NCBI GenBank assembly: GCA_046497275.1
Contig: JAWOFX010000075.1
Location: 20,295 to 52,294 of the forward strand
Length of the DNA stretch: 32,000 nucleotides
Reading direction: 5' to 3'
Origin: Promethearchaeia archaeon
Lineage (GTDB): Archaea > Asgardarchaeota > Lokiarchaeia > Sigyniarchaeales > SOKP01
Shown: positions 2,675 through 32,000 of the stretch, piece by piece
How positions within the stretch are numbered: position 1 is the first letter of the stretch
Layout: each line of letters begins with the position of its first letter
Program-made: the position numbers and the translations under genes
Notes under the pieces: model-generated
Told to the model about the DNA's origin: nothing
Seen by the model: the letters and a program-made list of their open reading frames with translations, nothing else
Databases searched by the model: none

Positions 2675-3460
2675 GTGAAGCCTTATAAAGTTCATTTTAC
2701 TGAAAAAGAATCAGACATTACAATAATATCAGACTTAAAATCTGCCATAGCTAATGCACAAGAGGCATTTTATCGCCATAGAAAGGATTTAGAACATTAT
2801 ATTTCCAAACATAAGGATTTTTTAACTTCTTTTTCACCTGTATCTGTTAATACTTCTCTCAAAATAATAAATATTATGGCAGAGGCTGCTTATATTTGCG
2901 ATGTGGGACCAATGGCGGCAGTAGCGGGAGCATTGGCTGATCTTATGTATAAATCAATGATACAAGAAGAAGAAAAACACAAAATTCCCAAAATAGCATT
3001 AGTGGAAAATGGTGGAGAAATTATCATAGATTCAAAAAAATCCTTACGAATTGCTTTATATGCAGGTGATAATGAATTAAATCTCAATATTGGGTTTCTT
3101 ATTGAAGAATCAGATTGTCCCATTGGTGTTGCTACTAGTTCTGCTACTGTTGGTCATGCCATTAGTTTAGGAGAAGCTGATGCTGTTACAGTTTTCGCTG
3201 AAAATGCAACGCTTGCAGATGCTGCAGCTACAAAGATTGCTAATTTAGTTAAGGGAAATGATATAGAAAAGTCTATCAAAAAAGCTTTAGATACTGCTGA
3301 TGATTTACAAGAAATTAGAGGAGTGTTTATAAATCGTGAAAACAAAATTGGAAGGACAGGAAAAATACCTAAAATGATTAAAATTGAAGGAAATAAAAAT
3401 CAACTTATTCATAAAAAAGCAGAAGATTTACTTTTGAATGATTTTGACATATTTAAATGA
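2675..3460 (+). CDS. UPF0280 family protein (ApbE-like superfamily)
   Basis: Motifs GPMAAVAGA, VENGGEI, GVATSSATVGHAISLGEADAVTV and ADAAATKIAN are typical of archaeal UPF0280. GTG start. Confidence 0.88.
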   Translation: MKPYKVHFTEKESDITIISDLKSAIANAQEAFYRHRKDLEHYISKHKDFLTSFSPVSVNTSLKIINIMAEAAYICDVGPMAAVAGALADLMYKSMIQEEEKHKIPKIALVENGGEIIIDSKKSLRIALYAGDNELNLNIGFLIEESDCPIGVATSSATVGHAISLGEADAVTVFAENATLADAAATKIANLVKGNDIEKSIKKALDTADDLQEIRGVFINRENKIGRTGKIPKMIKIEGNKNQLIHKKAEDLLLNDFDIFK

Positions 3461-5717
3461 CCCAGTATATTGGTTTCTCATCTCCACTGCTTGGTTTGGA
3501 AGAATAAATTCTATTGAGATAAGATAGATTATAATATTGTTCTACTTCTTGATCAGATAATCCACTATAAAATGTCCATGTTTCGAATCTAAAATAATAT
3601 CTCGTTAAAAATAGATATACATCTGTTCCATAATCTTCTTTAATCTGCGTTAATCTATTAGTACCATTGTCATATATATGTAATTCCGGTTTCAAATATT
3701 GATCATCCATATATATAAAATAATGAATGTCTTTAGCTTCAAAATTTTTATTTGCTGCGTTATATGGATAATCATAGTAAAAGAATGGTAATCTTTCACC
3801 AAATTCTACAATAAGAATTTTTTTATCTGAACTATATTGAGAGAAATCTTGAATGGGCTTTAATTCTTTTTGCTCAAAACTAAACAATTTAGCGAAGTAA
3901 GAGATTTCTGAAATTGAAATAAAAAGAGAAATGATCATAACTGAAATTAAAAAAATTTGGATTTTTCTGTTTTTAAATAACTGTAATTTGATGAATTTAT
4001 ATAAATATGCGACGAACCCAATAGCAATAAACGGTGAAAAGAGTTCTAATATGCGTGGCCAGATAGTGCTGCTTGCAAAAAGCAGATTATAAAGAAATCC
4101 AAGTGCGAGAATTAAAGCAAATCCAACAAATAATATATATAAAAACTCTCCGCGAGAAGATTTTTGAAACCATATGAAACCCCAAGTCGCAAATATGCCA
4201 ATTAGAAGGATTTCAATAATTGTAAATAATGTCTGTATGTTTAAATTAAAAATTAGATTATTTGCAAGAAGAAAAAATGTCGTTAATATACCCATTATCA
4301 TAATAGCAAGGGGAATAACAAATTTTTTCTCTATTCTCTGCTTCTTAATTATCTGTTCTTTTTTATATTGAAAAAATATATCTTTTTTCCCAAATCTTAT
4401 CCCTCGAATAAATTTTCGAATTATTGGTATTAAAATTATAGCAACTCCACTAATCGCAATTAAGTAATAATAAAATGGAAAATTTAACGCTCCTGAAAAT
4501 CCACTTACGATACTCAATAAATGCCCTACTCCGATATTAAACCCAACAAATATGGCTAATATCACGCATAGAAAAATCAGGATTATAAAATCAAATCCTC
4601 TCCTATAATCTTTTATGAAATAAATGAGATAAACCCATATATATGCAACTAAAAAAATAGTTGTAATTAGTGAATGTGTTAAGGTGCTCCCTATAAATAA
4701 TAAAATTATTAAAATGTATGAAAATAACAAATTTTCTTTGATCTCCTTGATTGAGACATAATCAAATTCAACAAATTTTTGTCCTCGTGAGTATAAAAGA
4801 TAGAGGATCAAAAGTGATTGTAAGACTGCCAATGTTTCTGGCCAAAAGCTATTCACAATTCGAATAAAACCTAAGGACGAAAATTCTAATACAAAGACTC
4901 CAAATACAGCCAAATTTGTATTTTTAAATATCTTTTTAAAAAAGATATAGAGTAATAAACCCGATAAAAGAATAGAGTATGTTGTAAAATATCTGGGAAT
5001 CAAGAAAATGTTAATGTTTGAAAAAAAGTAATATACTGTACTATATATATGAATTCCCATTGCGCTATAATAATCTTGGGTTGGCAAATAACCTTTTATG
5101 TCTATGATTTTGATAATCATGACGTGTAGCCACGAATCAGAATTATTAAATGTACTCACTAAAGTTAAATATAGTATACATAAAAATATAAGAAAAATCG
5201 TAAGTAAAATGGCATTTAGATTATTGATAATTTTAGTTTTTAAATAACTATATAATGAAAAATCATTTTGTATTGTTTCAATTTTTTCTTTTTTTTCATC
5301 TTTATCTCTGTTATTATAATCGCTTAGGCTTTTATAATATAAAATTATAACAATTAAGATGCCATAGACTATAAGGATAAAATAAAAGAAAAATAATCCG
5401 TTAAGATAAAATCCTATCAAATTACCAAAAAATCCAATGATAATATACAAAGAGAGATTAGACATAACAGTGAAAACAAACTTTTCTAGGAGAGTTAACT
5501 TATCATTTTTTATTAAATTGAAAAATAGAGGATATGTGGGAAATAAAAGAATGATATATAATCCAATAAAATATTGAAGAATCCCCAAATTTATAATATT
5601 AGTCAAAAACAGAAGAGTTTCTAATAAAACCAACGATGAGATCATATGAAAGATTATATTGTATTTCTTTTTTATAAAATATCCAATTCCAAAAATAATC
5701 TTATCTAAATCTTTCAT
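3453..5717 (-). CDS. Large polytopic membrane protein, putative GT-C-fold glycosyltransferase (paralog A)
   Basis: 754 aa with many hydrophobic segments, DSWLH in an early loop, FWPETLA, and a ~140-aa soluble C-terminal domain ending PIYWVI. Clear paralog of 10432..12687. Confidence 0.55.
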   Translation of the reverse strand: MKDLDKIIFGIGYFIKKKYNIIFHMISSLVLLETLLFLTNIINLGILQYFIGLYIILLFPTYPLFFNLIKNDKLTLLEKFVFTVMSNLSLYIIIGFFGNLIGFYLNGLFFFYFILIVYGILIVIILYYKSLSDYNNRDKDEKKEKIETIQNDFSLYSYLKTKIINNLNAILLTIFLIFLCILYLTLVSTFNNSDSWLHVMIIKIIDIKGYLPTQDYYSAMGIHIYSTVYYFFSNINIFLIPRYFTTYSILLSGLLLYIFFKKIFKNTNLAVFGVFVLEFSSLGFIRIVNSFWPETLAVLQSLLILYLLYSRGQKFVEFDYVSIKEIKENLLFSYILIILLFIGSTLTHSLITTIFLVAYIWVYLIYFIKDYRRGFDFIILIFLCVILAIFVGFNIGVGHLLSIVSGFSGALNFPFYYYLIAISGVAIILIPIIRKFIRGIRFGKKDIFFQYKKEQIIKKQRIEKKFVIPLAIMIMGILTTFFLLANNLIFNLNIQTLFTIIEILLIGIFATWGFIWFQKSSRGEFLYILFVGFALILALGFLYNLLFASSTIWPRILELFSPFIAIGFVAYLYKFIKLQLFKNRKIQIFLISVMIISLFISISEISYFAKLFSFEQKELKPIQDFSQYSSDKKILIVEFGERLPFFYYDYPYNAANKNFEAKDIHYFIYMDDQYLKPELHIYDNGTNRLTQIKEDYGTDVYLFLTRYYFRFETWTFYSGLSDQEVEQYYNLSYLNRIYSSKPSSGDEKPIYWVI

Positions 5718-5892
5718 AATCTCTATTTCTTCCTCTTTTTTTATTCATAGTTTTGGTTTAAATTTAAATTATTCTGTTCCTTCATACTTCTAACTCATTC
5801 TAATATAATTTCATCGTATTTAACTCCTGAAAGGAAGTTATAAAATTCAATTCGCTTAATGATATCATTTTGAAATTTTCTCATTTTTTATT

Positions 5893-6855
5893 TTACTCTT
5901 CCCATTCGGTAATCCAATCATAAGTTCTTTTCAAACCCTCATCAATAGTAATTTTCGGATGATAATTGAGAAGTTTTTCTGCTTTGGTAGTATCTGAATG
6001 GGTAACATCAACATCTCCCTTTCTTTCATCAACATATTTAACATTTTTTGGTTTTTCTGCTATTTTATAGATTTTATCTACTAATTGGTTAACAGAAATT
6101 GGATTCGAGCACCCTAAATTAAAAATCTCCCCGTTTGTTGATTTTTTTTCTGCTGAAAGAATTAAGCCATTTATAATATCAGAAATGTAAGTAAAGTCTC
6201 TTAATTGTTCCCCGTCTCCATAAATTAATATCTTCTCATCATTAAGTACAAGATGAAAAAATTTTCTTATTGCCATATCAGGTCTTCCTCGCGGACCATA
6301 GACAGTGTAAAATCTATTTGAAGTCACTGGTAAATTATATTCTCGATAGTAATAATCTGCATATATTTCACCTGTTAACTTTGATATCGCATAAGGAGAT
6401 ATTGGAGATTTAGGGTGCTCCTCATCTACAGGAGTATATTCTGGATTTCCATACACTGATGAAGAAGAGGCATATATTATCTTTTCAACTTCATTTTTCA
6501 CCGCATACTCAAAGATTTTTACTGTACTTGTTATATTATTATGAGATACTTCACTAGCATTTTCTATGGAATAGCGCACCCCTGCTTGAGCGGCTAAATG
6601 AAATATTATATCGATTCCGTCCTCCAATTGGTCATAAGTAGAATCTTTTAAAAGATCACATCTTAATAGGGAATAATCTTTATTTAAAGTTAGGTGGCTT
6701 GTTAATTCTGTGAATTGTTCTTCTTTTCCACTATAATAATCATTAAAATTGTCAATTACGATCAAATGATTATTATGTTTACTTAACTCTTCGAACAAAC
6801 TTGTTCCAATAAAACCAGCCCCTCCTGTAATCAGAATACGTTTATTTTTAATCAT
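5893..6855 (-). CDS. NAD-dependent nucleotide-sugar epimerase (UDP-glucuronate/UDP-glucose 4-epimerase-like extended SDR)
   Basis: Contains TGGAGFIG, LAAQAGVRYS, SSSSVYG, YAISK and RFYTVYGPRGRPDMA (WcaG/CapI/GAE-like). Confidence 0.85.
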   Translation of the reverse strand: MIKNKRILITGGAGFIGTSLFEELSKHNNHLIVIDNFNDYYSGKEEQFTELTSHLTLNKDYSLLRCDLLKDSTYDQLEDGIDIIFHLAAQAGVRYSIENASEVSHNNITSTVKIFEYAVKNEVEKIIYASSSSVYGNPEYTPVDEEHPKSPISPYAISKLTGEIYADYYYREYNLPVTSNRFYTVYGPRGRPDMAIRKFFHLVLNDEKILIYGDGEQLRDFTYISDIINGLILSAEKKSTNGEIFNLGCSNPISVNQLVDKIYKIAEKPKNVKYVDERKGDVDVTHSDTTKAEKLLNYHPKITIDEGLKRTYDWITEWEE

Positions 6856-7044
6856 ATTAAGATCTCTTTAGTTTTATATTCTTTTTAACTAATTTCTTTT
6901 AGGCTTCAAATTACATATTTAACAATAGAAAATAAAATTTTGTAAAGTCTCCTCTACTCTTATAAATATATATGATAATCTGATAAAATATATTCATATA
7001 AATTTCAAGACAAAAATTAGAGTTATTACATAATTTTGATTTTT

Positions 7045-7836
7045 TTATTTTTTAAAAATTGATCTATATATTTTATCTACGATATTTAGAAAAGAATAAT
7101 AGGTAATTAAGATGAGAATTGAAATAATTAACTTTGGTAAATATACATAAGAAGTTCCATAACTCCTTTCACTTACTTCGATTGGGACTTCCCTAAACTT
7201 AAAATTACGAATACCCGATTTAAATAAAAGCTCTGTAGTAAAACCCATTCCTTTAAACCTTGATTTCTCGACAATCTCTTTAACATCTTTATTAAATGCC
7301 CTATAGCCACTTTGGTTGTTTTTAATGGGTTGACCAAACAATACCCACAAAACTTTATCTATTACATATTCTCCCATTCTTGTATGAAGTGGGACAGTAT
7401 AATGGCATGTTCCCATATATCTTGAGCCGACCACTATATCTGTTTCGCCTTTTATAATCGGGTTAATAATATTAGGTATTTCTTTAGGATCATGCTGTCC
7501 ATCTGAGTCCAATGTAACAATAATATCTCCCTTAGCTAATTTTATACCTGTTAATAATGCTGCTCCATAGCCTAAATTTTGAGGATGATGGATAATTCTC
7601 ACGTTTTTATCATTCAATTTTTTGGCATTCATTACGCTTTTATCCGTGGATCCATCATTAACAACTATAATTTCTTGCGATTTCCGATAGGGTATATTTC
7701 TTATTACATTTGCAATAGAATTCTCTTCATTATATAATGGTATTACTATTGATAAAAAAGTGGAATTAGGATTCTGGGTATTCGAAGATTTTTTTTGTTC
7801 AGAAATCGCGATTTGTTTTTCTTTTTTTCTCTTCAT
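7045..7836 (-). CDS. GT2 glycosyltransferase, dolichol/polyprenol-phosphate hexose synthase (DPM1-like)
   Basis: Contains IVIPLYNEE, VNDGSTD, NLGYGAAL, TLDSDGQHDP, VVGSRY and NQSGYRAF. Confidence 0.85.
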   Translation of the reverse strand: MKRKKEKQIAISEQKKSSNTQNPNSTFLSIVIPLYNEENSIANVIRNIPYRKSQEIIVVNDGSTDKSVMNAKKLNDKNVRIIHHPQNLGYGAALLTGIKLAKGDIIVTLDSDGQHDPKEIPNIINPIIKGETDIVVGSRYMGTCHYTVPLHTRMGEYVIDKVLWVLFGQPIKNNQSGYRAFNKDVKEIVEKSRFKGMGFTTELLFKSGIRNFKFREVPIEVSERSYGTSYVYLPKLIISILILITYYSFLNIVDKIYRSIFKK

Positions 7837-8099
7837 TTTATTTTGAATAGATGAGATTTTTCTCTTAATCAGGGTATAGGATAAATTTAAGAAAGGTTTT
7901 TAATAATACTCACATAGCACGCTTGAATTTCTTAGTTATCCTTTTAAAATTTTAAGTTTTATCTATTTTTGATTGTATAAATATTTAATTATAGAAAGGA
8001 AATAAATAATTAATTTTTTTCTGAATTAGTGTAGAATTCAAAATTTCCTATTTAATAATTCATTAAAAAATGATCATTTCTGGTATAACTATATTCATC

Positions 8100-8933
8100 T
8101 TAAAGATTAAGGTGTGAAAATCTAATTCGATATATATAATTAACTATTTTTGGGTACACCATGGATAATTTTAGTAAAAGGCGATAAATCTTGTTAAATA
8201 CAGAATCAGAATATCCATATTTCTCTAAGGCTTTTTCTTGAATTTTATAGGTAAACTTTATTGTATCCGAAATGCTTTTAAATTTCACTTGTTCTTTGCT
8301 TACTCGATATTTAACTAAAGGGACATCAAGATTTCTAAGTTTCCAAAATCTCCCCACCCTCAACCAATAATCATAATCTTGGCAAACTTGCCATGTTTCA
8401 TCATAATATCCAATCTTGTCTATAACTTTTTTTCTTAAAAGAACGCATGATTGGGCAATGGGATTATACCGCATGATGACTTTTTTAATTTCTCGGTCTG
8501 TTGAGGGATAATCTCGGTGTCCAATAATCTGAGAATTTTCATCAATTAAATATTTATTACTCCCCACTAATCCATATTCAGGATGGGTTTCTAAAAATTT
8601 CACTTGTAGTTCTAATCTTTTACTAAGTGCTACATCATCACTATCTATTATTGCAAAATATTTAGCATCAGGAGAACTTAATTTAAATCCCTCATTTCGC
8701 GTTTTCACGATTTTAAGATTTTCTTTATTACGAAAAGGCTTAATTCGGTCATCTTTATTAGCGTATTTTTGAATTATCTCCCAACTTTTATCAGTAGAAC
8801 CATCATCAATTATAATATACTCAAAATTACCATAAGTTTGATTTAAAATACTCTCAATTGTCTCATGAACGACTTTTTCTCTATTATAATTTGGAGTAAA
8901 CACTGTTATAAATGGGGATTTATCAGTCATCAT
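8100..8933 (-). CDS. GT2 family glycosyltransferase (GT-A)
   Basis: Contains TPNYNRE, SILNQTY, IDDGSTD, IIDSDD and CQDYDYWLR. Confidence 0.88.
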   Translation of the reverse strand: MMTDKSPFITVFTPNYNREKVVHETIESILNQTYGNFEYIIIDDGSTDKSWEIIQKYANKDDRIKPFRNKENLKIVKTRNEGFKLSSPDAKYFAIIDSDDVALSKRLELQVKFLETHPEYGLVGSNKYLIDENSQIIGHRDYPSTDREIKKVIMRYNPIAQSCVLLRKKVIDKIGYYDETWQVCQDYDYWLRVGRFWKLRNLDVPLVKYRVSKEQVKFKSISDTIKFTYKIQEKALEKYGYSDSVFNKIYRLLLKLSMVYPKIVNYIYRIRFSHLNL

Positions 8934-9048
8934 TGTTTTATACTCAGTTATAATTTTATCAAATTCTCTCTATTTTAGAATTCTTTAATTCTATAAAATT
9001 TTAATATTTATGAATTACACCTAATCCAAAAATCTCTCACATTTCACT

Positions 9049-10326
9049 CTATTTTTCAAGTAATATCTCTTTTTGGCACTGATTTTTAAACAAATATTTG
9101 CTTATTCCATAAAAATTCAAAATTAAAAATACAGTTGCCAGAAAATTGTAAGGAAACCATGGTTTTATTAAATACCAGATTCCCATAAATACTAAATCAA
9201 GAAAAACATAATATATTACTCCCGGTTTTATAAACTTATTTTTAATCTCTGAATCTTCTGGCATATCAAAAATTATTATGATTAACAATGGGAGGATAAT
9301 TAGTAAATGATGGTCCCAAGAATCAAAATAGACAAGAAGCATGATTATAATACCTAAAGTGAGCCCATAAATGAGTGTTTTCTTAACATGATTAGATAAT
9401 AAAACTAATATTAAACCAATTGAACCAAAGAAACTTAATAATACTAGAAGGATTAGTGTTTGATTTACAGGGAGATTGTAAAAAACAAGCATGTTTATGA
9501 TTAATTTTGTTATGCTGAATGAATGTCTAAGCTCTATTATATTTGTTCCAGCAAAATTATTATTCAAAAATCCCTCCCATAATTTTGGATTCACTGCAAA
9601 AAAAATGATATTAGGCAATAAAAATATCGAAATTCCAATTAGTCTTATGATAGATTTCTTTATATTTAGATTGAATTTTCTTTCCTTTATGCTATAATTT
9701 AAAACAATTAAAAAAGGCACAGCAATTAATGTAATTGGCTTTATTGCGGTACTTATTCCTATCAATATACTAGCAAAAAAATCCCATTTAAGAGTATTTT
9801 TCTTAAGTATAAGATAAATTGCCCATAAAATGAGGAAAATTACAATTAAATTATTCTGACCTAAAATATAATTATTGACCTGGGGCGATGCTCCAAGAAA
9901 TAAAGCAAAATATCTAGCCACCCTATCATCGCGTATTTTCTCTTTATTTTTGATTAATTCAATTATTTTATACATAAAATAACAAATCCCTATATTCATG
10001 ATCAAATTGAAAGCCATAAAAGATAAGAATCCGATATTAAAATCTAAGAGAGAAAAAGGTATATAAAATATTGCCGAGAGAGGAAAATACCTAAAGAAAA
10101 ATATATTATTCTCTTTTAAATATAGATTATCGATATCAAATAGCAAACGGTTCCCTGCATTATAAAACACTATAAAATCATTTTGAGAATAAAAAATAGT
10201 TAGGAATAAGATAATTGAGACAATTATATAACCTATTTGTACAAGAATAGCAATTTTAAAAAATGGATACTTCCAGAGGTTTGAAATCTTTTTTCTAAAT
10301 TCTATTAATTTTCCTTCTAAATTCAT
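9049..10326 (-). CDS. GT87/DUF2029-like polytopic glycosyltransferase (GT-C)
   Basis: Contains DFIVFYNAG, FRYFPLSAIFYIPFSLL, GQNNLIVIFL, IKPITLIAVPFL and WDHHLL, with ~10-11 hydrophobic segments. Confidence 0.75.
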   Translation of the reverse strand: MNLEGKLIEFRKKISNLWKYPFFKIAILVQIGYIIVSIILFLTIFYSQNDFIVFYNAGNRLLFDIDNLYLKENNIFFFRYFPLSAIFYIPFSLLDFNIGFLSFMAFNLIMNIGICYFMYKIIELIKNKEKIRDDRVARYFALFLGASPQVNNYILGQNNLIVIFLILWAIYLILKKNTLKWDFFASILIGISTAIKPITLIAVPFLIVLNYSIKERKFNLNIKKSIIRLIGISIFLLPNIIFFAVNPKLWEGFLNNNFAGTNIIELRHSFSITKLIINMLVFYNLPVNQTLILLVLLSFFGSIGLILVLLSNHVKKTLIYGLTLGIIIMLLVYFDSWDHHLLIILPLLIIIIFDMPEDSEIKNKFIKPGVIYYVFLDLVFMGIWYLIKPWFPYNFLATVFLILNFYGISKYLFKNQCQKEILLEK

Positions 10327-10431
10327 ATTTAAAATAAATATTATAAATTGCTATTCTCTAAGCTTATTTCTGTAATTAAATAAATTATATCATAAAATCT
10401 TTTCTAAATCTAATAGAAGCAATGATGAAAC

Positions 10432-12687
10432 TTAAATTACCCAATAGATAGGCTCATCGACGTTATTTATTGTCCGTGTAGAACATATCCTATTGAAATA
10501 ACTCAAATTATAATACATTTCAATTTGCTCTTGTGATATTGATCCAAAATTCTCTAATCCTGAAAAAGAAATAAAATAATCCGTGAGGATCAAATATACA
10601 TCAGTACTATAAGTGCTTTTTAGGACCTGGAAAATATTTTCATTATCCTGAATATGATTCTGTGGTAATAATAACCGCTCAGAAATCGTTATGAAATTAT
10701 GTAATGATTCAGGATCCAAATCAGAATCATTATAAGGAAAATCATAATAATAAAAAAGATATTCCCATAAAAATTCGGTAATAATTACTTTCTTCTCATT
10801 AGTGTATTCAGACATCCAAATTATATTCTGAACTTCATAGTTTTCAATACTATAAGTTCTATAATAATCACGTTCTTCAATAAAAGAGGTAAAAATCGTG
10901 AAGATAACTAAAAGAAGCAAACTCACTTTAACTACATTCTTATTAATTTGATGAGTTTTTATAAGTTTATAAAAGTAAGAAATAAAACCGATAATTATTG
11001 AAACTGAGGAGAATATAAAGATTCTCCCAAAAAAACTGAATCCACCAAAAATTAGATATAACAACAAACTTGCTCCGATAATAAGAAAAAGATTCACAAA
11101 CCATATAAAGAGAAATTTACCTTTCGGCTTTTTCTGAAAGAGAATAAACCCCCAAACTGAAAAAAGAACAAAGATTCCGTCTTGTATAACCACAAGGAAC
11201 GTTGATATAGTAAAATTAAACCATAATATGTTTCCAATTGTGAAAACAATACTTGTACTGATTAATACGCTGAAAATTACCGGAATTACAAATTTCTTCT
11301 CTAAATTATTGTACCACGTATTATGGATTATTTTCTTAAATTTTCCTATTTCAAAATCAATCGACTTCGTAATTATCCGAATAAAAATGAGAAGACAAGG
11401 TATTCCTAATAATAATAACAATATGAACGTTGGATTTGAAATATTATAATAAAATAGAATTCTAGAAAAATGTCCAATAGCAAAATCAATTAAATAAAAA
11501 CCCCCAAAAATACCACATAAAATTAGTAATAAAATCAAATCGCCCCCTCTCTTTCTGTTTTTCAAAAAATATATCAAATAAATCATTGTAAATGAGACGA
11601 TAAAAGACATAGTCACTAATGAATGTGTAAATATTGAGCTAATGAAAAGAATCACGATTAAAATATAGCTTAGTATCAGATCTTTTCTGAATTCTTTATT
11701 TCTTGGAGGACTATCTCTAATAAAATTTTCGGCTCGTCTATAGAGTATATAAAAAATTGTAAGACATTGGAAACTTGCTAAACTGGTTGGCCAAAATTGA
11801 TATTGTAAAAATGAAAAGCCTAAAAAAGACGTCTCTAGTAGAAAGACTCCCATTATGGCAAGATTTCGATTTTTAAATATCTTTCTTAGGAGAGAATAAA
11901 TTATTAATGCCCCTAAAAAGAATGTAAAGAATACAAACAATCTTGGAATTAAGAAAATATCTAAATTAGTGAAATAATGAATAATAAGAGTAAAAATATG
12001 CAATCCAAGGTTCTCAAAATAGAAGTCTAAGGGTAGGGTCTTATTAATATTTATATATTCCAAAATGAATATGTGATACCAAGGATCTGTTCCCATAAAA
12101 AAACTTACTCGAATGATATCAAAAATAGATAATAAGAAAATAAAAAAGAGTAATAATATAATGTTTATTCGTTCTTTTTCCTTCAGATAACTAAAAACGG
12201 AATGACTCTCGGTAAAATTTAATATCTGAGTTTCCTTATTTCTAAATTTAAAAAAAGAAGAATTTTGATTATCCAAATTTAATAAAATTGCTATTAAAAA
12301 TAACATAAAGCTGAATGAGCTAATGAAGGCAAAGAAATAGATTTCATTTAATGGTATATTAATAAAATAACCAAAATATCCCACGAGAATATAAAAGGAC
12401 ATATTACTGACGATCATAAGCATTAATTTTTCGGGAAAATTAAAATTTTTCCGCTCCAATATCATAAAATAAAGAGGGTATGTGGGAAGGACTAAAATAA
12501 TATAAATACCAGAAAACAACAATCCTATTCTATAAAGAACATTAAGAAAAGCAAAATCTTTGGTTAAATTTGAAAAACCTAAAATTCTTGATAATATGAA
12601 TAAAAAAGATATTAAAGATACGATAATAATGAATAAATTTATTCTATATTTGAAATAAATTAATAATTTCCTGAAATTTATTCGCAT
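10432..12687 (-). CDS. Large polytopic membrane protein, putative GT-C-fold glycosyltransferase (paralog B)
   Basis: 751 aa with FMGTDPWYH (similar to the AglB/STT3 loop-1 D-P-[W/Y]-Y-H motif), FWPTSLA, and a C-terminal domain WMSEYTNEKKVIITEFLWEY ending PIYWVI. Confidence 0.6.
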   Translation of the reverse strand: MRINFRKLLIYFKYRINLFIIIVSLISFLFILSRILGFSNLTKDFAFLNVLYRIGLLFSGIYIILVLPTYPLYFMILERKNFNFPEKLMLMIVSNMSFYILVGYFGYFINIPLNEIYFFAFISSFSFMLFLIAILLNLDNQNSSFFKFRNKETQILNFTESHSVFSYLKEKERINIILLLFFIFLLSIFDIIRVSFFMGTDPWYHIFILEYININKTLPLDFYFENLGLHIFTLIIHYFTNLDIFLIPRLFVFFTFFLGALIIYSLLRKIFKNRNLAIMGVFLLETSFLGFSFLQYQFWPTSLASFQCLTIFYILYRRAENFIRDSPPRNKEFRKDLILSYILIVILFISSIFTHSLVTMSFIVSFTMIYLIYFLKNRKRGGDLILLLILCGIFGGFYLIDFAIGHFSRILFYYNISNPTFILLLLLGIPCLLIFIRIITKSIDFEIGKFKKIIHNTWYNNLEKKFVIPVIFSVLISTSIVFTIGNILWFNFTISTFLVVIQDGIFVLFSVWGFILFQKKPKGKFLFIWFVNLFLIIGASLLLYLIFGGFSFFGRIFIFSSVSIIIGFISYFYKLIKTHQINKNVVKVSLLLLVIFTIFTSFIEERDYYRTYSIENYEVQNIIWMSEYTNEKKVIITEFLWEYLFYYYDFPYNDSDLDPESLHNFITISERLLLPQNHIQDNENIFQVLKSTYSTDVYLILTDYFISFSGLENFGSISQEQIEMYYNLSYFNRICSTRTINNVDEPIYWVI

Positions 12688-12995: not shown

Positions 12996-13787
12996 ATGAT
13001 TATAACTGAAACAGATCAACCAAAAAAAAATCAAAAATCATATGATTATAAGCCAGAGATAAACACAGATGTCAGATTCTCTAATATTAAAATAGCACTC
13101 GTCTTACCTGCTTTTAATGAAGAAAAAAATATTGGGTATGTACTTTCAAAAATCTCTCCCTTCTATTCCGAGAATATGGATATAATAGTTGTGGACGACG
13201 GTTCATCTGATAAAACAGTTAAAGTTGCAAAGAATTATGATACTTTAATCCTTTATCACCAAGAAAATAAAGGAAATGGTGCTGCAACAATTACAGGGTT
13301 AAATTTTTGTAAGAATAAGGGCTATGATTTAGCAATTATTCTTGATGCTGACGGACAACATGATCCTAATTTCATACCCTTATTTATAAATACTATTTTG
13401 AACGATAAGGCAGATTTCGTTATTGGAAATCGTTTTAATTATTTTTATGATATGAATCCCATAAAAAAGATATGTTCTAAATTGTTGACAGTCTTCTATT
13501 TCTTTTTATATGGAAAGAAAATTTCAGATCCTTCCAATGGATATAGAGCCCTTTCCAAAAAGATATTACAAGAAAATTCTTTTCAATCACATTATTCAAT
13601 TACTCAAGAAATGTTATTTAAAGTACTCCCTAAGTATAAATGTAAAGAAATTCCCATTCAACTAAAATCTCGAAGAGAGGGAAAATCTTTCATTAAAATT
13701 AAGAAATATTTCGGGATCATGATTTCAAGTTTCTTGAAATTTTATATTTTGGAAAAATTGAACAAAATCTATAATATACTTTTTTAA
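12996..13787 (+). CDS. GT2 glycosyltransferase, DPM1-like polyprenol-phosphate sugar synthase
   Basis: Contains LVLPAFNEE, VDDGSSD, NKGNGAA, LDADGQHDP, VIGNRF and DPSNGYRAL. Confidence 0.85.
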   Translation: MIITETDQPKKNQKSYDYKPEINTDVRFSNIKIALVLPAFNEEKNIGYVLSKISPFYSENMDIIVVDDGSSDKTVKVAKNYDTLILYHQENKGNGAATITGLNFCKNKGYDLAIILDADGQHDPNFIPLFINTILNDKADFVIGNRFNYFYDMNPIKKICSKLLTVFYFFLYGKKISDPSNGYRALSKKILQENSFQSHYSITQEMLFKVLPKYKCKEIPIQLKSRREGKSFIKIKKYFGIMISSFLKFYILEKLNKIYNILF

Positions 13788-23713: not shown

Positions 23714-24535
23714 ATGAGTATCGTTCAATCTGTAAAAGAGAATGCGTCTCAAATATTAGCTATCACAGAAAAAAATGTAAAGTTACATCTTAGATACAAA
23801 TCAGGTATTCTTTTTGGTTTTATAAACCCAATAATCGCGATATTAATTCCTCTTGTAATTATGGGAAATTTGTTCCAATTCAATAATCAATTTGGAGAAT
23901 GGACTTCAGAAAATTTCCTTATATACCAATTTATTGCTTATGATATTTCATTATTAAAGAGTCTTGTTAATGTGTTCCCAAAACAATTTCAAATGGAAAA
24001 ATTTTGGAAGACTTTACCCGCATTAATAATTGGACCATTTAATCGAATAAACTTATTATTCAGTATTCTCTTATCACATCTAATTATTATATCCCCTCCC
24101 TTTATTACAATTATGGTTATGTGTTATGTTTTTTATCCGATCTCTTTTGGTTCGTTTTTCTTTTTTCTTTTTACATTATTTCTTATTTCTTTAATTTTTA
24201 GTGGTATTGGAATAACACTTGGTGTATTTGCTATCTCAAATGAGAATTTATTGAAAGTTTTTAATTTCTTAATTGGTTTTGTCTTTTTATTTAGTTGTAT
24301 AACCTATCCTTTTGAAATATTTCCAGATTTTATTCAAAATATAATTAATATTAACCCCCTATACTATGTTTTCGATTTTCTAAGAATGATTTGGATTCAT
24401 AATGATATCATTTTAACTATAAGCAGTTTACCTTATCATTTTTTCATCCTTTTAATATGTGCTGTTTCTATTCCCATAATTGGGATTTTAATTTTTAGTA
24501 AAATATATAAAAAATACGGGATAACAGGATTTTAA
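23714..24535 (+). CDS. ABC-2 type transporter permease
   Basis: About six hydrophobic segments and an ABC-2-like end (YPFEIFP...INPLYYVFDFLR). It lies directly upstream of an ABC ATPase. Confidence 0.82.
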   Translation: MSIVQSVKENASQILAITEKNVKLHLRYKSGILFGFINPIIAILIPLVIMGNLFQFNNQFGEWTSENFLIYQFIAYDISLLKSLVNVFPKQFQMEKFWKTLPALIIGPFNRINLLFSILLSHLIIISPPFITIMVMCYVFYPISFGSFFFFLFTLFLISLIFSGIGITLGVFAISNENLLKVFNFLIGFVFLFSCITYPFEIFPDFIQNIININPLYYVFDFLRMIWIHNDIILTISSLPYHFFILLICAVSIPIIGILIFSKIYKKYGITGF

Positions 24536-24545
24536 CTTAAAAATT

Positions 24546-25463
24546 ATGATTGAAACACGTAATCTCTCAAAAATTTATAAATTAAAAAATAAAAAAGAAA
24601 TAATTGCTCTTGATAAGATCAATCTAAACGTAAAAGAGGGAGAGATATTTGGCCTTCTAGGACCAAATGGGGCTGGAAAAACAACACTTATTAAAATCTT
24701 AACCACTTTAACTCAACCCACGGATGGTTGGGCAAAACTAGATGGTCTTGATGTAGTGGAACATCCTAAGAAGGTAAAATCAAAAATCTCATTAATGCTT
24801 GAAAGCGATATGCTTTATTATCGAATTACGGGTTATGATAATTTAAAATTTTTTTGTAAAATTTATAAAGTTCCAGACTATAAAACAAAAATTAATGACC
24901 TTGCTGAAGAATTTGATTTGAAAAAATGGCTTAAAGAATACGTTGGTCAATATTCAAGTGGGATGAAGATGAAACTTGCTTTGTGTAGAACATTATTAAT
25001 TAATCGAAAAGTTTTAATCTTAGATGAACCAACTCTCGGTCTTGATGTTGAATCTACTGCAAGGATCGTTAACAAGTTAAGAAAAATCAATAAAACAATA
25101 TTTTTAACTAGTCATGATCTAAATATGGTTGAAAAATTGTGCGACAGAGTCGCTTTTATTAATTATGGAAGAATTTTAAAAATTGGCACTAAAGAAGATA
25201 TTAAAAAATTAGATAGATCTGAAATAGAAATTAATGTAACTATTGAAAATAAAATAGATGGATTAAGAGAAAAGCTAATAGGTCAAGATTTTATAACTAA
25301 ATTTGAAAAAAATAAAAATAATGTATTAATTGGGATTAACCATCGAAAAAGTTATCAAAAATTACTCCAAATTTTATCTGAATTTCCTGTGTTAAAGATT
25401 AAAGAAAATGAATCGACTTTAGAGGAATTATTTTTAAAAATAACAAAAAATGAAACTAATTAA
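24546..25463 (+). CDS. ABC transporter ATP-binding protein (exporter type)
   Basis: Walker A GPNGAGKT, signature YSSGM, Walker B LILDEP and H-loop TSH. Confidence 0.93.
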   Translation: MIETRNLSKIYKLKNKKEIIALDKINLNVKEGEIFGLLGPNGAGKTTLIKILTTLTQPTDGWAKLDGLDVVEHPKKVKSKISLMLESDMLYYRITGYDNLKFFCKIYKVPDYKTKINDLAEEFDLKKWLKEYVGQYSSGMKMKLALCRTLLINRKVLILDEPTLGLDVESTARIVNKLRKINKTIFLTSHDLNMVEKLCDRVAFINYGRILKIGTKEDIKKLDRSEIEINVTIENKIDGLREKLIGQDFITKFEKNKNNVLIGINHRKSYQKLLQILSEFPVLKIKENESTLEELFLKITKNETN

Positions 25464-26454: not shown

Positions 26455-27636
26455 ATGATAAGAATGAGATCTGAAAACATAATAAAAAAAATTTATTTGA
26501 TCTTTCCCATAATTAGTTTAATTCTCTGGGGGTTTTTGGCAGATTTTACTGGAATTGATTTTACTGCTTATTATAACGCCGGAAAATATATATTCACGAT
26601 GCCAGAACTAATCTATTCGGATTTATTTCATCCTAAATTTTTATATTGCCCAGGAATTGCTGTTTTTTCCTTTTTTTTTACACTATGCAATATCGGAACG
26701 GCTATGATCATTTATTTTTTTATTTCCTTATTATTTGGAATATTAAGTATCATAACATTGGATCAAATATTATCATTTAAAAATATCAGTAAACGCTTGA
26801 AATTAGTTATATTAATGATTGTTAGTAATGGGTTTGCAGTTGAAGGAACATTTGCAAATTTACAATCAAAATTTATTGTACTTTTCTTAATTTTAATTCT
26901 AATTAAAAGAGAAATTGAGAAGGTTAATTATAATATCAAATTTCTTTCCGTACAAACTTTTATACTTGTTCTAGCAATTTCTTTTTTACCATATTTGATT
27001 TTTTTAGGGATTATTTATATTTTTTATAAATCTAAAGATTATTTTTTACATAAATCTTTATTACTTGGTGTAGAGTTTCTAATATTCAACTTTCTTTTTA
27101 TAATAAAACCTTCTACAATTATGGGGTTTTTAGACGGATTTGAAACTTATTCATATTTAACTTATCTCTATCGTTCTGGATTTCCATCCTTAATTCTGTC
27201 ATATTTAAGAGAAATTATCGTATTTCCGAAAATCATTATACTCCAAATTATTACTGTTGTGAGCTTAAGTATGGGATCTTTATATCTTATGTTAAAAGAT
27301 TATTCATTAGAAGAAAAATTTGGAATTATCTTTCTCGTTTTTCTTTTATTCAGCAGTACTTATTATCCAAGTGGACATATAGTAGCAATCTTTCCTATTA
27401 TCTTTCTTCTTTTCAAAAAGGAAACTTGTATTAATTACATTTTTATTTTCATTTTATTTTTACTATATTGTTTTCCTTTAATCGAGACTAGTCGGTTTTT
27501 TGACCTAACTTTTGTATTTGATAATATTAAACCAGTTTCTACAGTTATCTCAATTATTGAACATACATTATACGCTATGCTTCTCATTAGCAAAATAAAA
27601 AAATTAAATAAAAACTACAAAAATACTCTATTTTAA
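26455..27636 (+). CDS. GT87/DUF2029-like polytopic glycosyltransferase (GT-C)
   Basis: Contains GIDFTAYYNAG and FLYCPGIAVFSFFF, with ~10-11 hydrophobic segments. It is more degenerate than 9049..10326. Confidence 0.65.
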   Translation: MIRMRSENIIKKIYLIFPIISLILWGFLADFTGIDFTAYYNAGKYIFTMPELIYSDLFHPKFLYCPGIAVFSFFFTLCNIGTAMIIYFFISLLFGILSIITLDQILSFKNISKRLKLVILMIVSNGFAVEGTFANLQSKFIVLFLILILIKREIEKVNYNIKFLSVQTFILVLAISFLPYLIFLGIIYIFYKSKDYFLHKSLLLGVEFLIFNFLFIIKPSTIMGFLDGFETYSYLTYLYRSGFPSLILSYLREIIVFPKIIILQIITVVSLSMGSLYLMLKDYSLEEKFGIIFLVFLLFSSTYYPSGHIVAIFPIIFLLFKKETCINYIFIFILFLLYCFPLIETSRFFDLTFVFDNIKPVSTVISIIEHTLYAMLLISKIKKLNKNYKNTLF

Positions 27637-30401: not shown

Positions 30402-31055
30402 ATGAGTAGGTTGAAAAATGATAAATCTTCTTCGGTTGATATTGAAGAGCCACTGGGGAACTTCTTATCCGATACGGATTGCCTATTTATCCGAAAGATT
30501 TATGAAAGGTTTGGAAAAGAGCCAATATTCGATTCCCAAAATAATATCGTCTTAAGAATTGGGAATTATTCCCATATTGGAAATGGAAATTATTACTTGG
30601 AACTGGATGAAAAAACCAGATATTTTGTTAACGAAAAAGAGTGGTCGCTTAGTAAAGTCCATTTTCTGATGAATAAACATGGTAAAATTGCCACAATGCA
30701 GAGGAAAGTATTATCTTTCTCACCACAATTTTATTTAAGTACTATGAATGGAAACAGAGTTTTGGAAACGAAAGAGAAGTCTTTTGAAAGGACCAATTTT
30801 GAAATTAAAACCCCCTCAAAAAATACTCCAATTTGTAGAATTAAATTAATTAAATCTCGTCAAGGAAAAACGCCCGACGCAAGGGAATATCTCAAAGTAG
30901 AGTTTTTCGATCACGAGATAAATAAAATCCTGTTAATTAGCTTTATCCTCTACATTAGAAAATTAACTATGCTGTATAATGGTATCTCAGATGTTGCTAA
31001 TTATGGAAGAAAAATTGTGCGATTAAGACCATTTGGCCCAAAAGTGTTTAAATAA
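30402..31055 (+). CDS. Hypothetical protein, LURP-one-related/tubby C-terminal (scramblase-like) fold suspected
   Basis: It has a run of short beta segments (KIATMQRKVLSFSPQFYLS, FERTNFEI, EYLKVEF) ending in one hydrophobic helix (KILLISFILYI), the layout of LOR/tubby barrels. It starts 1 nt after the rmlD stop. Confidence 0.5.
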   Translation: MSRLKNDKSSSVDIEEPLGNFLSDTDCLFIRKIYERFGKEPIFDSQNNIVLRIGNYSHIGNGNYYLELDEKTRYFVNEKEWSLSKVHFLMNKHGKIATMQRKVLSFSPQFYLSTMNGNRVLETKEKSFERTNFEIKTPSKNTPICRIKLIKSRQGKTPDAREYLKVEFFDHEINKILLISFILYIRKLTMLYNGISDVANYGRKIVRLRPFGPKVFK

Positions 31056-31371: not shown

Positions 31372-32000
31372 ATGGTTCTGGAAGCTCAAAAACAAAAGAT
31401 TTATCTGGAAATTACACCTGATCTACATTCAAAAGAAGATTTGTTAATCTCAATCATTATCCCCTTATATAATGAGGAAAAAACGATTACCCAGGTCATA
31501 AATAGCATCCCAAATCATCGACATTATGAGATTATTATCGTGGATGATGGCTCAACCGATAAGAGCCTGGAGAAAATTCAAGAACTCAGTAATGATAATA
31601 ATTATATCAATATTATTTCCCATAAAGAAAATAAGGGCTACGGTAGTTCAATTTTAACGGGTTTTAAACACTCTACAGGAGATATCATCGTCACACTTGA
31701 TTCTGATGGACAACATGATCCAGGACAAATACCATTATTGATAAAACCCATTTTAGACGATGAAGCAGATATCGTTATCGGCTCACGATATTTAGGTAAA
31801 TCAAATTATAAAATACCCCTCCACACTCAGATTGGGGAAGCGTTTGTCGAGAAAATACTCAAATATTTATTCCATCGAGAAGTTGAGAATAATCAGAGTG
31901 GATTTCGCGCCTTTCGAAAAGAGTGTATTGATACATTTGATGAATATTTGTATACAGATTTTGGGCTTTGTACCGAAATTTTATTTAAAGCTTCCATGCA
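31372..32000 (+). CDS. GT2 DPM1-like glycosyltransferase, 3'-truncated by the window edge (absent from the ORF track)
   Basis: From ATG 31372 it reads MVLEAQKQKIYLEITPDLHSKEDLLISIIIPLYNEE...VDDGSTD...NKGYGSS...TLDSDGQHDPGQIP...VIGSRY...PLHTQIGE...NNQSGFRAF, with no stop before 32000. Close paralog of 7045..7836. Confidence 0.88.
   Translation, partial: MVLEAQKQKIYLEITPDLHSKEDLLISIIIPLYNEEKTITQVINSIPNHRHYEIIIVDDGSTDKSLEKIQELSNDNNYINIISHKENKGYGSSILTGFKHSTGDIIVTLDSDGQHDPGQIPLLIKPILDDEADIVIGSRYLGKSNYKIPLHTQIGEAFVEKILKYLFHREVENNQSGFRAFRKECIDTFDEYLYTDFGLCTEILFKASM

Follow-up and report, generated by a model that had tools for sequence, protein, structure and literature searches.

A family of membrane proteins with the GT-C glycosyltransferase fold, real and well delimited but without Pfam coverage, was recognized from two paralogs, A and B, encoded in a 32,000-nucleotide (nt) stretch of DNA of a Promethearchaeia archaeon (GenBank assembly GCA_046497275.1, contig JAWOFX010000075.1, positions 20,295 to 52,294 of the forward strand). 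This whole stretch, referred to here as the window, is about 26% G+C and dense in coding sequence. The family probably adds sugars to the cell surface, and we see about an even chance that both proteins are outward-facing GT-C transferases that move a single sugar, linked to dolichyl phosphate (Dol-P), onto an exported surface glycan. An initial annotation had described them as two paralogous membrane proteins of approximately 750 amino acids (aa) resembling oligosaccharyltransferases (OSTs) of the AglB/STT3 type without WWDYG. In agreement with this description, both open reading frames (ORFs) were uninterrupted and complete and lay on the minus strand at the claimed positions, which are given below together with the features of each protein.

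3453..5717, minus strand: paralog A (P0001), 754 aa, an intact ORF with its translation; the copy at the conserved family locus beside UPF0280.
5124..5141, minus strand: SDSWLH of paralog A (D194, H198), the counterpart of GTDPWYH by translation and alignment.
10432..12687, minus strand: paralog B (P0002), 751 aa, an intact ORF; the second copy, in a deep clade of the family distinct from that of paralog A.
12193..12687, minus strand: N-terminal extension of paralog B (residues 1-165), which precedes the GT-C core and comprises 4 extra transmembrane (TM) helices and a K/R-rich loop on the cytoplasmic side.
12073..12093, minus strand: GTDPWYH of paralog B in the first external loop of the GT-C core, read from the translation; D201 is the candidate catalytic Asp.
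11008..11031, minus strand: FGRIFIFS of paralog B, read from the translation, a short external loop with the invariant R555, the candidate lipid-phosphate-binding Arg.
10435..10854, minus strand: external C-terminal alpha/beta domain of paralog B (residues 612-751), which carries W624, a VIIT strand, EF(G)W and YY(D)YPY.
10732-10818, minus strand: the WMSEY...YYDFPY stretch of paralog B, read from the translation.

Paralogs A and B aligned end to end with 37% identity over 733 residues (E 2e-126), and each of the motifs previously listed as shared, i.e., PTYPL, EK..SN[LM]S, D[SP]W[LY]H, FLIPR, FWP[ET][TS]LA, YYD[YF]PY, YYNLSY.NRI and a PIYWVI terminus, was found in both proteins. Reading of the translations also bore out the reported absence of WWD from paralogs A and B, the nearest motif being YY(D)YPY. 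An N-L-S sequon near the C-terminus, which had been offered as a sign of an external domain, was conserved in no more than 18 of the 123 family members and therefore does not characterize the family.

The fold was evident from an AlphaFold2 model of P0002 for which 34 aligned sequences served as input (mean pLDDT 80.3, pTM 0.86). The model contains 17 TM helices, 4 of them extra at the N-terminus and 13 in an AglB/ArnT-like core, followed by a small external alpha/beta domain; the arrangement of a 13-TM GT-C core and a C-terminal central-core domain is that of STT3, AglB and PglB. When the model was compared with the PDB by Foldseek, human and yeast STT3, PglB and AglB came first (probability 1.00, E down to 1.6e-4), AftA, DPY19 and ArnT came next after these OSTs and transporters remained below 0.1 probability, the top 16 rows all being GT-C glycosyltransferases. 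Thus, the predicted GT-C fold, with AglB, STT3 and PglB as the nearest solved relatives, was borne out. Solved GT-C structures aligned to the model only from residue ~165-175 on, which indicates that the standard GT-C core is preceded by 4 added TM helices. The isolated C-terminal domain (last 146 residues, folded on a 45-sequence alignment, pLDDT 84.4) found its best structural matches, by VIA-align against 48,161 chains, in OST C-terminal globular domains, with GT-C/OST C-terminal domains in 9 of the 12 best rows. Foldseek returned no match for the isolated domain at E<=0.001 and only Rossmann-like dihydrofolate reductase and methyltransferase rows.

Membrane orientation was assessed by the positive-inside rule, i.e., by counting Lys and Arg residues across the family alignment between the TM helices taken from the model. 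The mean count was 24.6 in predicted cytoplasmic loops versus 4.1 in predicted external loops, a bias that places the N-terminus inside. Both the C-terminal domain and residues 194-251, the 58-residue loop that comes first in the GT-C core, are thereby assigned to the outside. The loop charges, together with the structural matches of the isolated domain, therefore support the earlier view of the C-terminal domain as external and OST-like.

Conservation was examined in a 123-sequence alignment that included members only 24-28% identical to paralogs A and B. Just three residues, D201, H205 and R555 (paralog B numbering), were invariant (123/123), and two others, H355 (121/123) and W299 (120/123), were nearly so; all five lie on the predicted outer face. 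D201, within GTDPW[LY]H, would correspond to the conserved Asp of external loop 1 in STT3 and other GT-C enzymes, and the DxWxH Asp singled out in the initial annotation is thus invariant and, by the positive-inside rule, on the outer face. Other acidic positions were less constant: E285 was kept in 79/123 sequences, E502 in 95/123 (with 6 D and 10 Q) and the Asp of YY(D)YPY in 65/123 (53%). No invariant second acidic motif corresponding to the DxD/DxH/DNE of OST external loop 2 was found in this alignment, and the loop equivalent to external loop 5 (EL5), which in OSTs is long and carries a Glu (TIXE/SVSE), comprised only about 3 residues in the model. Active sites of solved GT-C enzymes combine an Asp of external loop 1 with a basic residue that engages the lipid phosphate. 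The pattern formed by D201, H205, R555, H355 and W299 resembles such a site, the matching to OST residues being by analogy rather than from coordinates.

In contrast with the fold, sequence comparisons did not place the family within STT3. No Pfam model, including STT3 (PF02516), matched either paralog at E<=10, and none matched 34 family members at E<=1, whereas the STT3 hidden Markov model (HMM) detected the real AglB of the same genome (contig 68) at E 4.4e-45. Searches of the paralogs against NCBIfam gave noise only, and comparison of the family profile with PDB sequences gave chance matches only. Canonical STT3-family genes, each with SWWDYGYW, were present in 23 of 25 relatives searched (24 of 26 genomes with the source genome included). 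In an hhalign comparison of the family profile with 24 Asgard AglBs, the score was 23.9 (probability 0.5%) as opposed to 19-27 for block-shuffled AglB controls and 17-27 for reversed and shuffled controls. This non-significant alignment paired, collinearly, GTDPW[LY]H with the Asp of AglB 'FDPW', E502 with the Glu of 'SVAEH', R555-I-x-x-L with 'RIILLFAP', W624 and the VIIT strand with AglB 'W...VVVS' and YY(D)YPY with WWDYGY. Since the score was no better than those of the block-shuffled controls, the alignment serves as a lead only; sequence homology between the family and AglB was not accepted, and the collinearity of the motifs is without statistical support. Thus, of the proposed AglB/STT3-like C-terminal pattern minus WWD, the absence of WWDYG held while sequence kinship with AglB could not be demonstrated. 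In OSTs, WWDYG is the acceptor-reading motif and the Asp of WWD is invariant.

The family accordingly shares with AglB, STT3 and PglB (GT66, PF02516) the architecture of GT-C core plus C-terminal domain and the external-loop-1 Asp, but differs from them by the lack of an STT3 HMM match, of WWDYG and of an invariant second acidic motif, by a very short EL5 equivalent and by 4 extra N-terminal helices; in addition, a true AglB coexists with it in the same genomes. It fails the sequence-defined tests of STT3 membership, yet has STT3 architecture, and is best filed as a new family in the GT-C superfamily, architecturally closest to AglB/STT3 but not a member. Of the predicted structures, the most similar were clusters with DUF2206 and DUF6541. 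A DUF2206 (PF09971) cluster representative matched the full-length model over residues 13-751, N-terminal helices included (TM-scores 0.68/0.70), with a language-model feature score of 0.97, and 3 of 10 distant family members gave sub-threshold matches to DUF6541 (PF20176; E 8.5e-5 to 0.08). Neither HMM matched the paralogs or 34 core members at E<=1, and a literature search found no paper, in the library covered, on these uncharacterised archaeal and bacterial membrane proteins.

Database searches indicated a narrow distribution. A word-indexed search of 5.8 billion proteins returned 41 relatives, all named ones labelled Promethearchaeota, Lokiarchaeota or Thorarchaeota, and an exhaustive phmmer search of 1.84 billion cluster representatives returned 96 matches, 46 of them at E<=1e-30; haloarchaeal homologues were found in neither. 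A scan of species-representative genomes yielded 104 loci, of which 80, labelled Asgard or 'uncultured archaeon', were kept; the match at one locus labelled Thermoplasmatales was identical to that at a Promethearchaeota locus, and the two contigs are nearly equal in length. A profile search with distant members returned 3 proteins only. Among 201 genomes sampled evenly across the phylum, the family was present in 38 of 40 genomes of the source organism's own GTDB family, mostly as one copy per genome and as 2-4 copies in a few. Elsewhere in this sample, only six weak partial matches (E 1e-11 to 1e-19) were noted, in 3 other GTDB families, each to a membrane protein of 555-910 aa without Pfam match. 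The suggestion of an uncharacterised family is supported by the lack of a Pfam model and by matches in Asgard archaea only, the range being far narrower than Asgard and essentially one GTDB family. NCBI record titles place loci L006, L026, L031, L045, L060 and others in Hermod-, Thor-, Hod- and Odinarchaeota, at variance with the even GTDB sample; either these labels are unreliable or the even sample missed carriers.

The genes that surround the paralogs in the window, other than those listed above, include the following.

5893..6855, minus strand: NAD-dependent sugar epimerase/dehydratase directly upstream of paralog A (Pfam Epimerase, GDP_Man_Dehyd; NCBIfam GalE/LegB/RmlB-like).
7045..7836, minus strand: glycosyltransferase of family 2 (GT2), of the dolichyl-phosphate-mannose synthase (DPMS)/ArnC/GtrB/AglJ class, copy 1 (best PDB match 5mlz, P. 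furiosus Dol-P-Man synthase, E 1.7e-20).
9049..10326, minus strand: GT87-family GT-C glycosyltransferase between the paralogs (Pfam GT87, E 7.5e-16).
12996..13787, plus strand: Dol-P-sugar synthase-like GT2, copy 2, divergent from paralog B (5mlz, E 8e-19; 34% identical to copy 1).
23714..25463, plus strand: ABC-2 type exporter pair, permease and ATPase (Pfam ABC2_membrane, ABC_tran), likely a glycan exporter.
26455..27636, plus strand: second GT87/DUF2029-like GT-C protein, 393 aa, polytopic, no Pfam match (Atlas features 0.98, structure TM-score 0.83 to GT87 clusters).
31372..31998, plus strand: Dol-P-sugar synthase-like GT2, copy 3, truncated where the contig stops (5mlz, E 1.1e-26).

Paralog B, the GT87-family enzyme, a GT2, the copy 1 DPMS-like GT2, the epimerase and paralog A form a six-gene co-directional array on the minus strand. 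For all three DPMS-like GT2 copies, the best solved relative was P. furiosus Dol-P-mannose synthase, followed by ArnC and GtrB, and NCBIfam assignments of such proteins were to AglJ, PpgS and Dol-P-hexose transferase. The second GT87-like protein brings the number of GT-C enzymes in the window to four; both GT87-type proteins share a D-F-x-x-[FY]-Y-N-A-G start. Further genes in the window are those for five additional GT2s, three methyltransferases, an acyltransferase, a sulfatase-fold protein, RmlA, RmlC, RmlD and a second short-chain dehydrogenase/reductase (SDR). A 217-aa soluble ORF at 30402-31055 (plus strand), between RmlD and the third DPMS-like GT2, had no Pfam or NCBIfam match. The layout of the cluster is that of a cytoplasmically built, ABC-exported, rhamnose-containing glycan accompanied by polyprenyl-phosphate-sugar synthases and GT-C enzymes.

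On its other side, paralog A adjoins the following gene.

2675..3460, plus strand: UPF0280 (ApbE-like) gene (NCBIfam PRK04334, E 3.5e-72), found in 66 of 83 loci; a conserved flank marker, not part of the system.

This gene is convergent with paralog A, with an 8-nt overlap at the 3' ends (3453-3460), and the same overlap was kept in related loci (L002 12279-12286, L004 12174-12181). The position of paralog A is the syntenic position of the family gene in 62-66 of 83 related loci, where a roadblock gene and longin-Arf GTPase pair lie beyond UPF0280 and an aspartate kinase and small Arf GTPase lie farther along the same flank. Because the carriers share one GTDB family and the block holds unrelated housekeeping genes, this flank was read as inherited backbone; a functional meaning for the synteny of Arf GTPase, roadblock and UPF0280 was considered and rejected on the same grounds, the aspartate kinase being one of the genes in the block.

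The opposite flank was variable. An SDR epimerase/dehydratase was directly upstream in most loci (homologue in 62/83), and 21 of 62 syntenic loci, including that of paralog A, contained a cassette with 1-2 DPMS-like GT2s, RmlD and epimerases, these being the only syntenic loci with a DPMS-like GT2 within 6 kb. A phosphonate cassette comprising phosphoenolpyruvate (PEP) mutase, phosphonopyruvate decarboxylase, iron-dependent alcohol dehydrogenase, nucleotidyltransferases, a major facilitator superfamily protein and a sulfatase-fold protein was present in 17 of 62, and Wzx or ABC exporters were nearby in other syntenic loci. Examples of the phosphonate cassette, at L002 172-8885, L004 825-9781 and 15 further loci, contained a PEP mutase-nucleotidyltransferase fusion and a second nucleotidyltransferase; the location of such cassettes beside the GT-C gene suggests phosphonate-decorated surface glycans in these Lokiarchaea. 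In a maximum-likelihood tree of the family, the phosphonate-type loci formed one clade and P0001 grouped with the syntenic DPMS-type loci, while P0002 grouped with P0003, P0005, P0006 and P0007 in a separate deep clade of non-syntenic second copies, apart from P0001. The pairing of paralog B with a DPMS-like GT2 recurred in L005 and L027, and the second copy in L005 has the same neighbours as paralog B, i.e., a divergent DPMS-like GT2 and two further GT2s.

The GT-C protein varied far more than its flank, with a median identity to paralogs A and B of 37% as opposed to 63-73% for UPF0280, roadblock and GTPase. Its divergence mostly followed that of the flank, 80-90% flank identity being associated with 67-90% GT-C identity. 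At 65-75% flank identity, a comparison in which kinship is only partly controlled, GT-C identity was 59-62% between loci with the same cassette type and 40-43% between loci with different types. Hypervariable behaviour of the kind seen for serotype alleles such as Wzy or WaaL was rejected, as GT-C identity mostly follows the flanks and only 2 pairs look swapped. These likely GT-C allele replacements, L068 versus L035 and L065, involve loci of close relatives with 90-92% identical UPF0280 and only 42-43% identical GT-C.

From the fold, topology, conservation and gene context we infer donor, acceptor and chemistry as follows. A sugar prepared by the adjacent epimerase/dehydratase would be loaded onto dolichyl phosphate by a neighbouring DPMS/AglJ-like GT2 and flipped across the membrane as the lipid-sugar. 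The GT-C enzyme would then place this single sugar on a surface glycan or glycoconjugate that had been assembled on the cytoplasmic side and then exported, in this case through the ABC-2 exporter. The outward-facing active site would be composed of D201 and H205 of the first external loop together with H355, W299 and R555, with D201 perhaps acting as catalytic base and R555 holding the phosphate, and the two paralogs may differ in sugar or acceptor position. The same logic applies to bacterial multi-component transmembrane glycosylation, in which a GT-A polyprenyl-phosphate-sugar synthase, a flippase and a GT-C enzyme act together, as for GacI/GacL, CsbB/YfhO, GtrB/GtrC and ArnC/ArnT. The cluster layout matches this scheme as reviewed for Gram-positive rhamnans and teichoic acids (PMC8035078) as well as the archaeal AglD/AglR/AglS step in Haloferax (PMC3892788). 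Shared with these systems is the location of the GT-C gene beside DPMS/ArnC/GtrB-class GT2s and an epimerase in a rhamnose-type glycan/ABC-export cluster. Different are the GT-C protein, which belongs to none of their families, and the occurrence of the GT2 nearby in only about a third of orthologous loci.

Several observations weigh against transfer of single sugars from Dol-P. In structure, the TM core and the C-terminal domain each match true OSTs best. AglJ of Haloferax, a GT2 of the DPMS/AglJ-like class, can initiate Dol-P-linked oligosaccharides (PMC3892788), so that adjacency to a DPMS-like GT2 is also compatible with en-bloc transfer. The 17 of 62 syntenic loci with the phosphonate cassette have no DPMS-like GT2 within 10 kb, and because the family is essentially one GTDB family, the synteny is partly due to close kinship. 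Lastly, no dedicated flippase of the GtrA or Wzx type, as expected from the multi-component systems, is encoded in the window. The non-sequon acceptor put forward in the initial annotation is hypothetical, and the gene context fits single-sugar transfer from Dol-P at least as well as en-bloc transfer of a glycan.

The latter mechanism would make the family a diverged AglB-type OST or ligase which, alongside canonical AglB, moves a completed, exported lipid-linked glycan en bloc to an acceptor that is not read via WWDYG, for example a lipid, an Asn in an unusual context or an O-linked site. We regard this, the main alternative, as possible though rather unlikely. In its favour are the ranking of AglB and STT3 as top whole-protein structural matches and of OST domains as top matches of the isolated C-terminal domain, an architecture equivalent to a short AglB plus four helices, and the location of YY(D)YPY a few residues after the strand equivalent to the one that precedes WWDYG in AglB. 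The collinearity of DPW, E502, R555 and YY(D)YPY in the hhalign alignment points the same way, but at a score and probability within the range of the block-shuffled controls. Constancy of the family gene beside variable glycan cassettes would also suit a ligase; however, 2-4 copies per genome, two of them in one array in the present case, would be unusual for one, and a canonical AglB is already present. Further points of disagreement are the Asp of YY(D)YPY, kept in little more than half of the sequences as opposed to the invariant OST Asp, the near absence of the EL5-equivalent loop and the lack of an invariant second acidic motif, E285 being the variable residue noted above. An AglB-independent, molecularly unidentified OST exists in Haloferax (PMC3892788), but the searches described above revealed no haloarchaeal homologues of the family. 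The specific proposal that the family is such an AglB-independent OST, i.e., an enzyme of STT3 type that has diverged deeply, with YY(D)YPY derived from WWDYG, and by which whole lipid-linked glycans are transferred to non-N-x-S/T sites (O-linked or atypical Asn), appears unlikely.

Two other functions were weighed against the same evidence. An ArnT/EptA-style lipid modifier or an Emb/Aft-like chain-extending polymerase, which would transfer the sugar of a Dol-P-sugar onto a lipid head group or a growing polymer, seems quite improbable, since the context is without sign of lipid modification and the clusters consist of exporter-containing cassettes for glycan assembly. Matches between helical bundles can be generic, and the GT-C-like helix arrangement might therefore have been retained in a transporter, flippase or structural membrane protein without transferase activity; we consider this very improbable, the Foldseek ranking of GT-C enzymes and transporters being as given above.

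No closer relatives of eukaryotes are known than Asgard archaea, of whose cell-surface chemistry, to our knowledge, almost nothing has been described. Orphan GT-C families are common in archaea; the present one is of interest for its near-universal occurrence in one Lokiarchaeal lineage, its AglB-like C-terminal domain minus WWDYG and its location at a glycan-cassette junction. The last feature, i.e., placement between a conserved chromosomal backbone and swappable glycan cassettes, makes the family a good handle on how the surface of these cells is built and varied. Decoration with single sugars, if true, would bring Asgard archaea, through a new GT-C family, into the GT-A/flippase/GT-C scheme. 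En-bloc transfer without WWDYG would bear on AglB-independent protein glycosylation in Archaea, and an AglB-independent OST would be the first molecular candidate for the 'second OST' activity predicted by archaeal genetics.

Some additional observations concern flippases and AglB in these genomes. One GtrA-like gene was noted elsewhere in the source genome (C51, E 5e-11). The idea that the N-terminal 4 helices of the family are a fused GtrA-type flippase was rejected, as hhalign against 22 Asgard GtrA proteins gave a probability of 0.13%, lower than that of the reversed control. In related genomes, GtrA_DPMS_TM domains occurred in long frames of 780 aa (G018:C97:11907-12248, L119), 381 aa (G013:C27, L138) and 404 aa (G020:C451, L125), which suggests flippase-type helices fused to larger proteins, probably Dol-P-sugar synthases. 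The AglB/STT3 genes of these Asgard genomes (L001, L085-L107; G000:C68:17506-18696 and relatives) were also unusually long frames, mostly of 1100-1360 aa, in which a very large additional C-terminal region comes after the first 600 residues, where SWWDYGYW and the STT3 domain are located.

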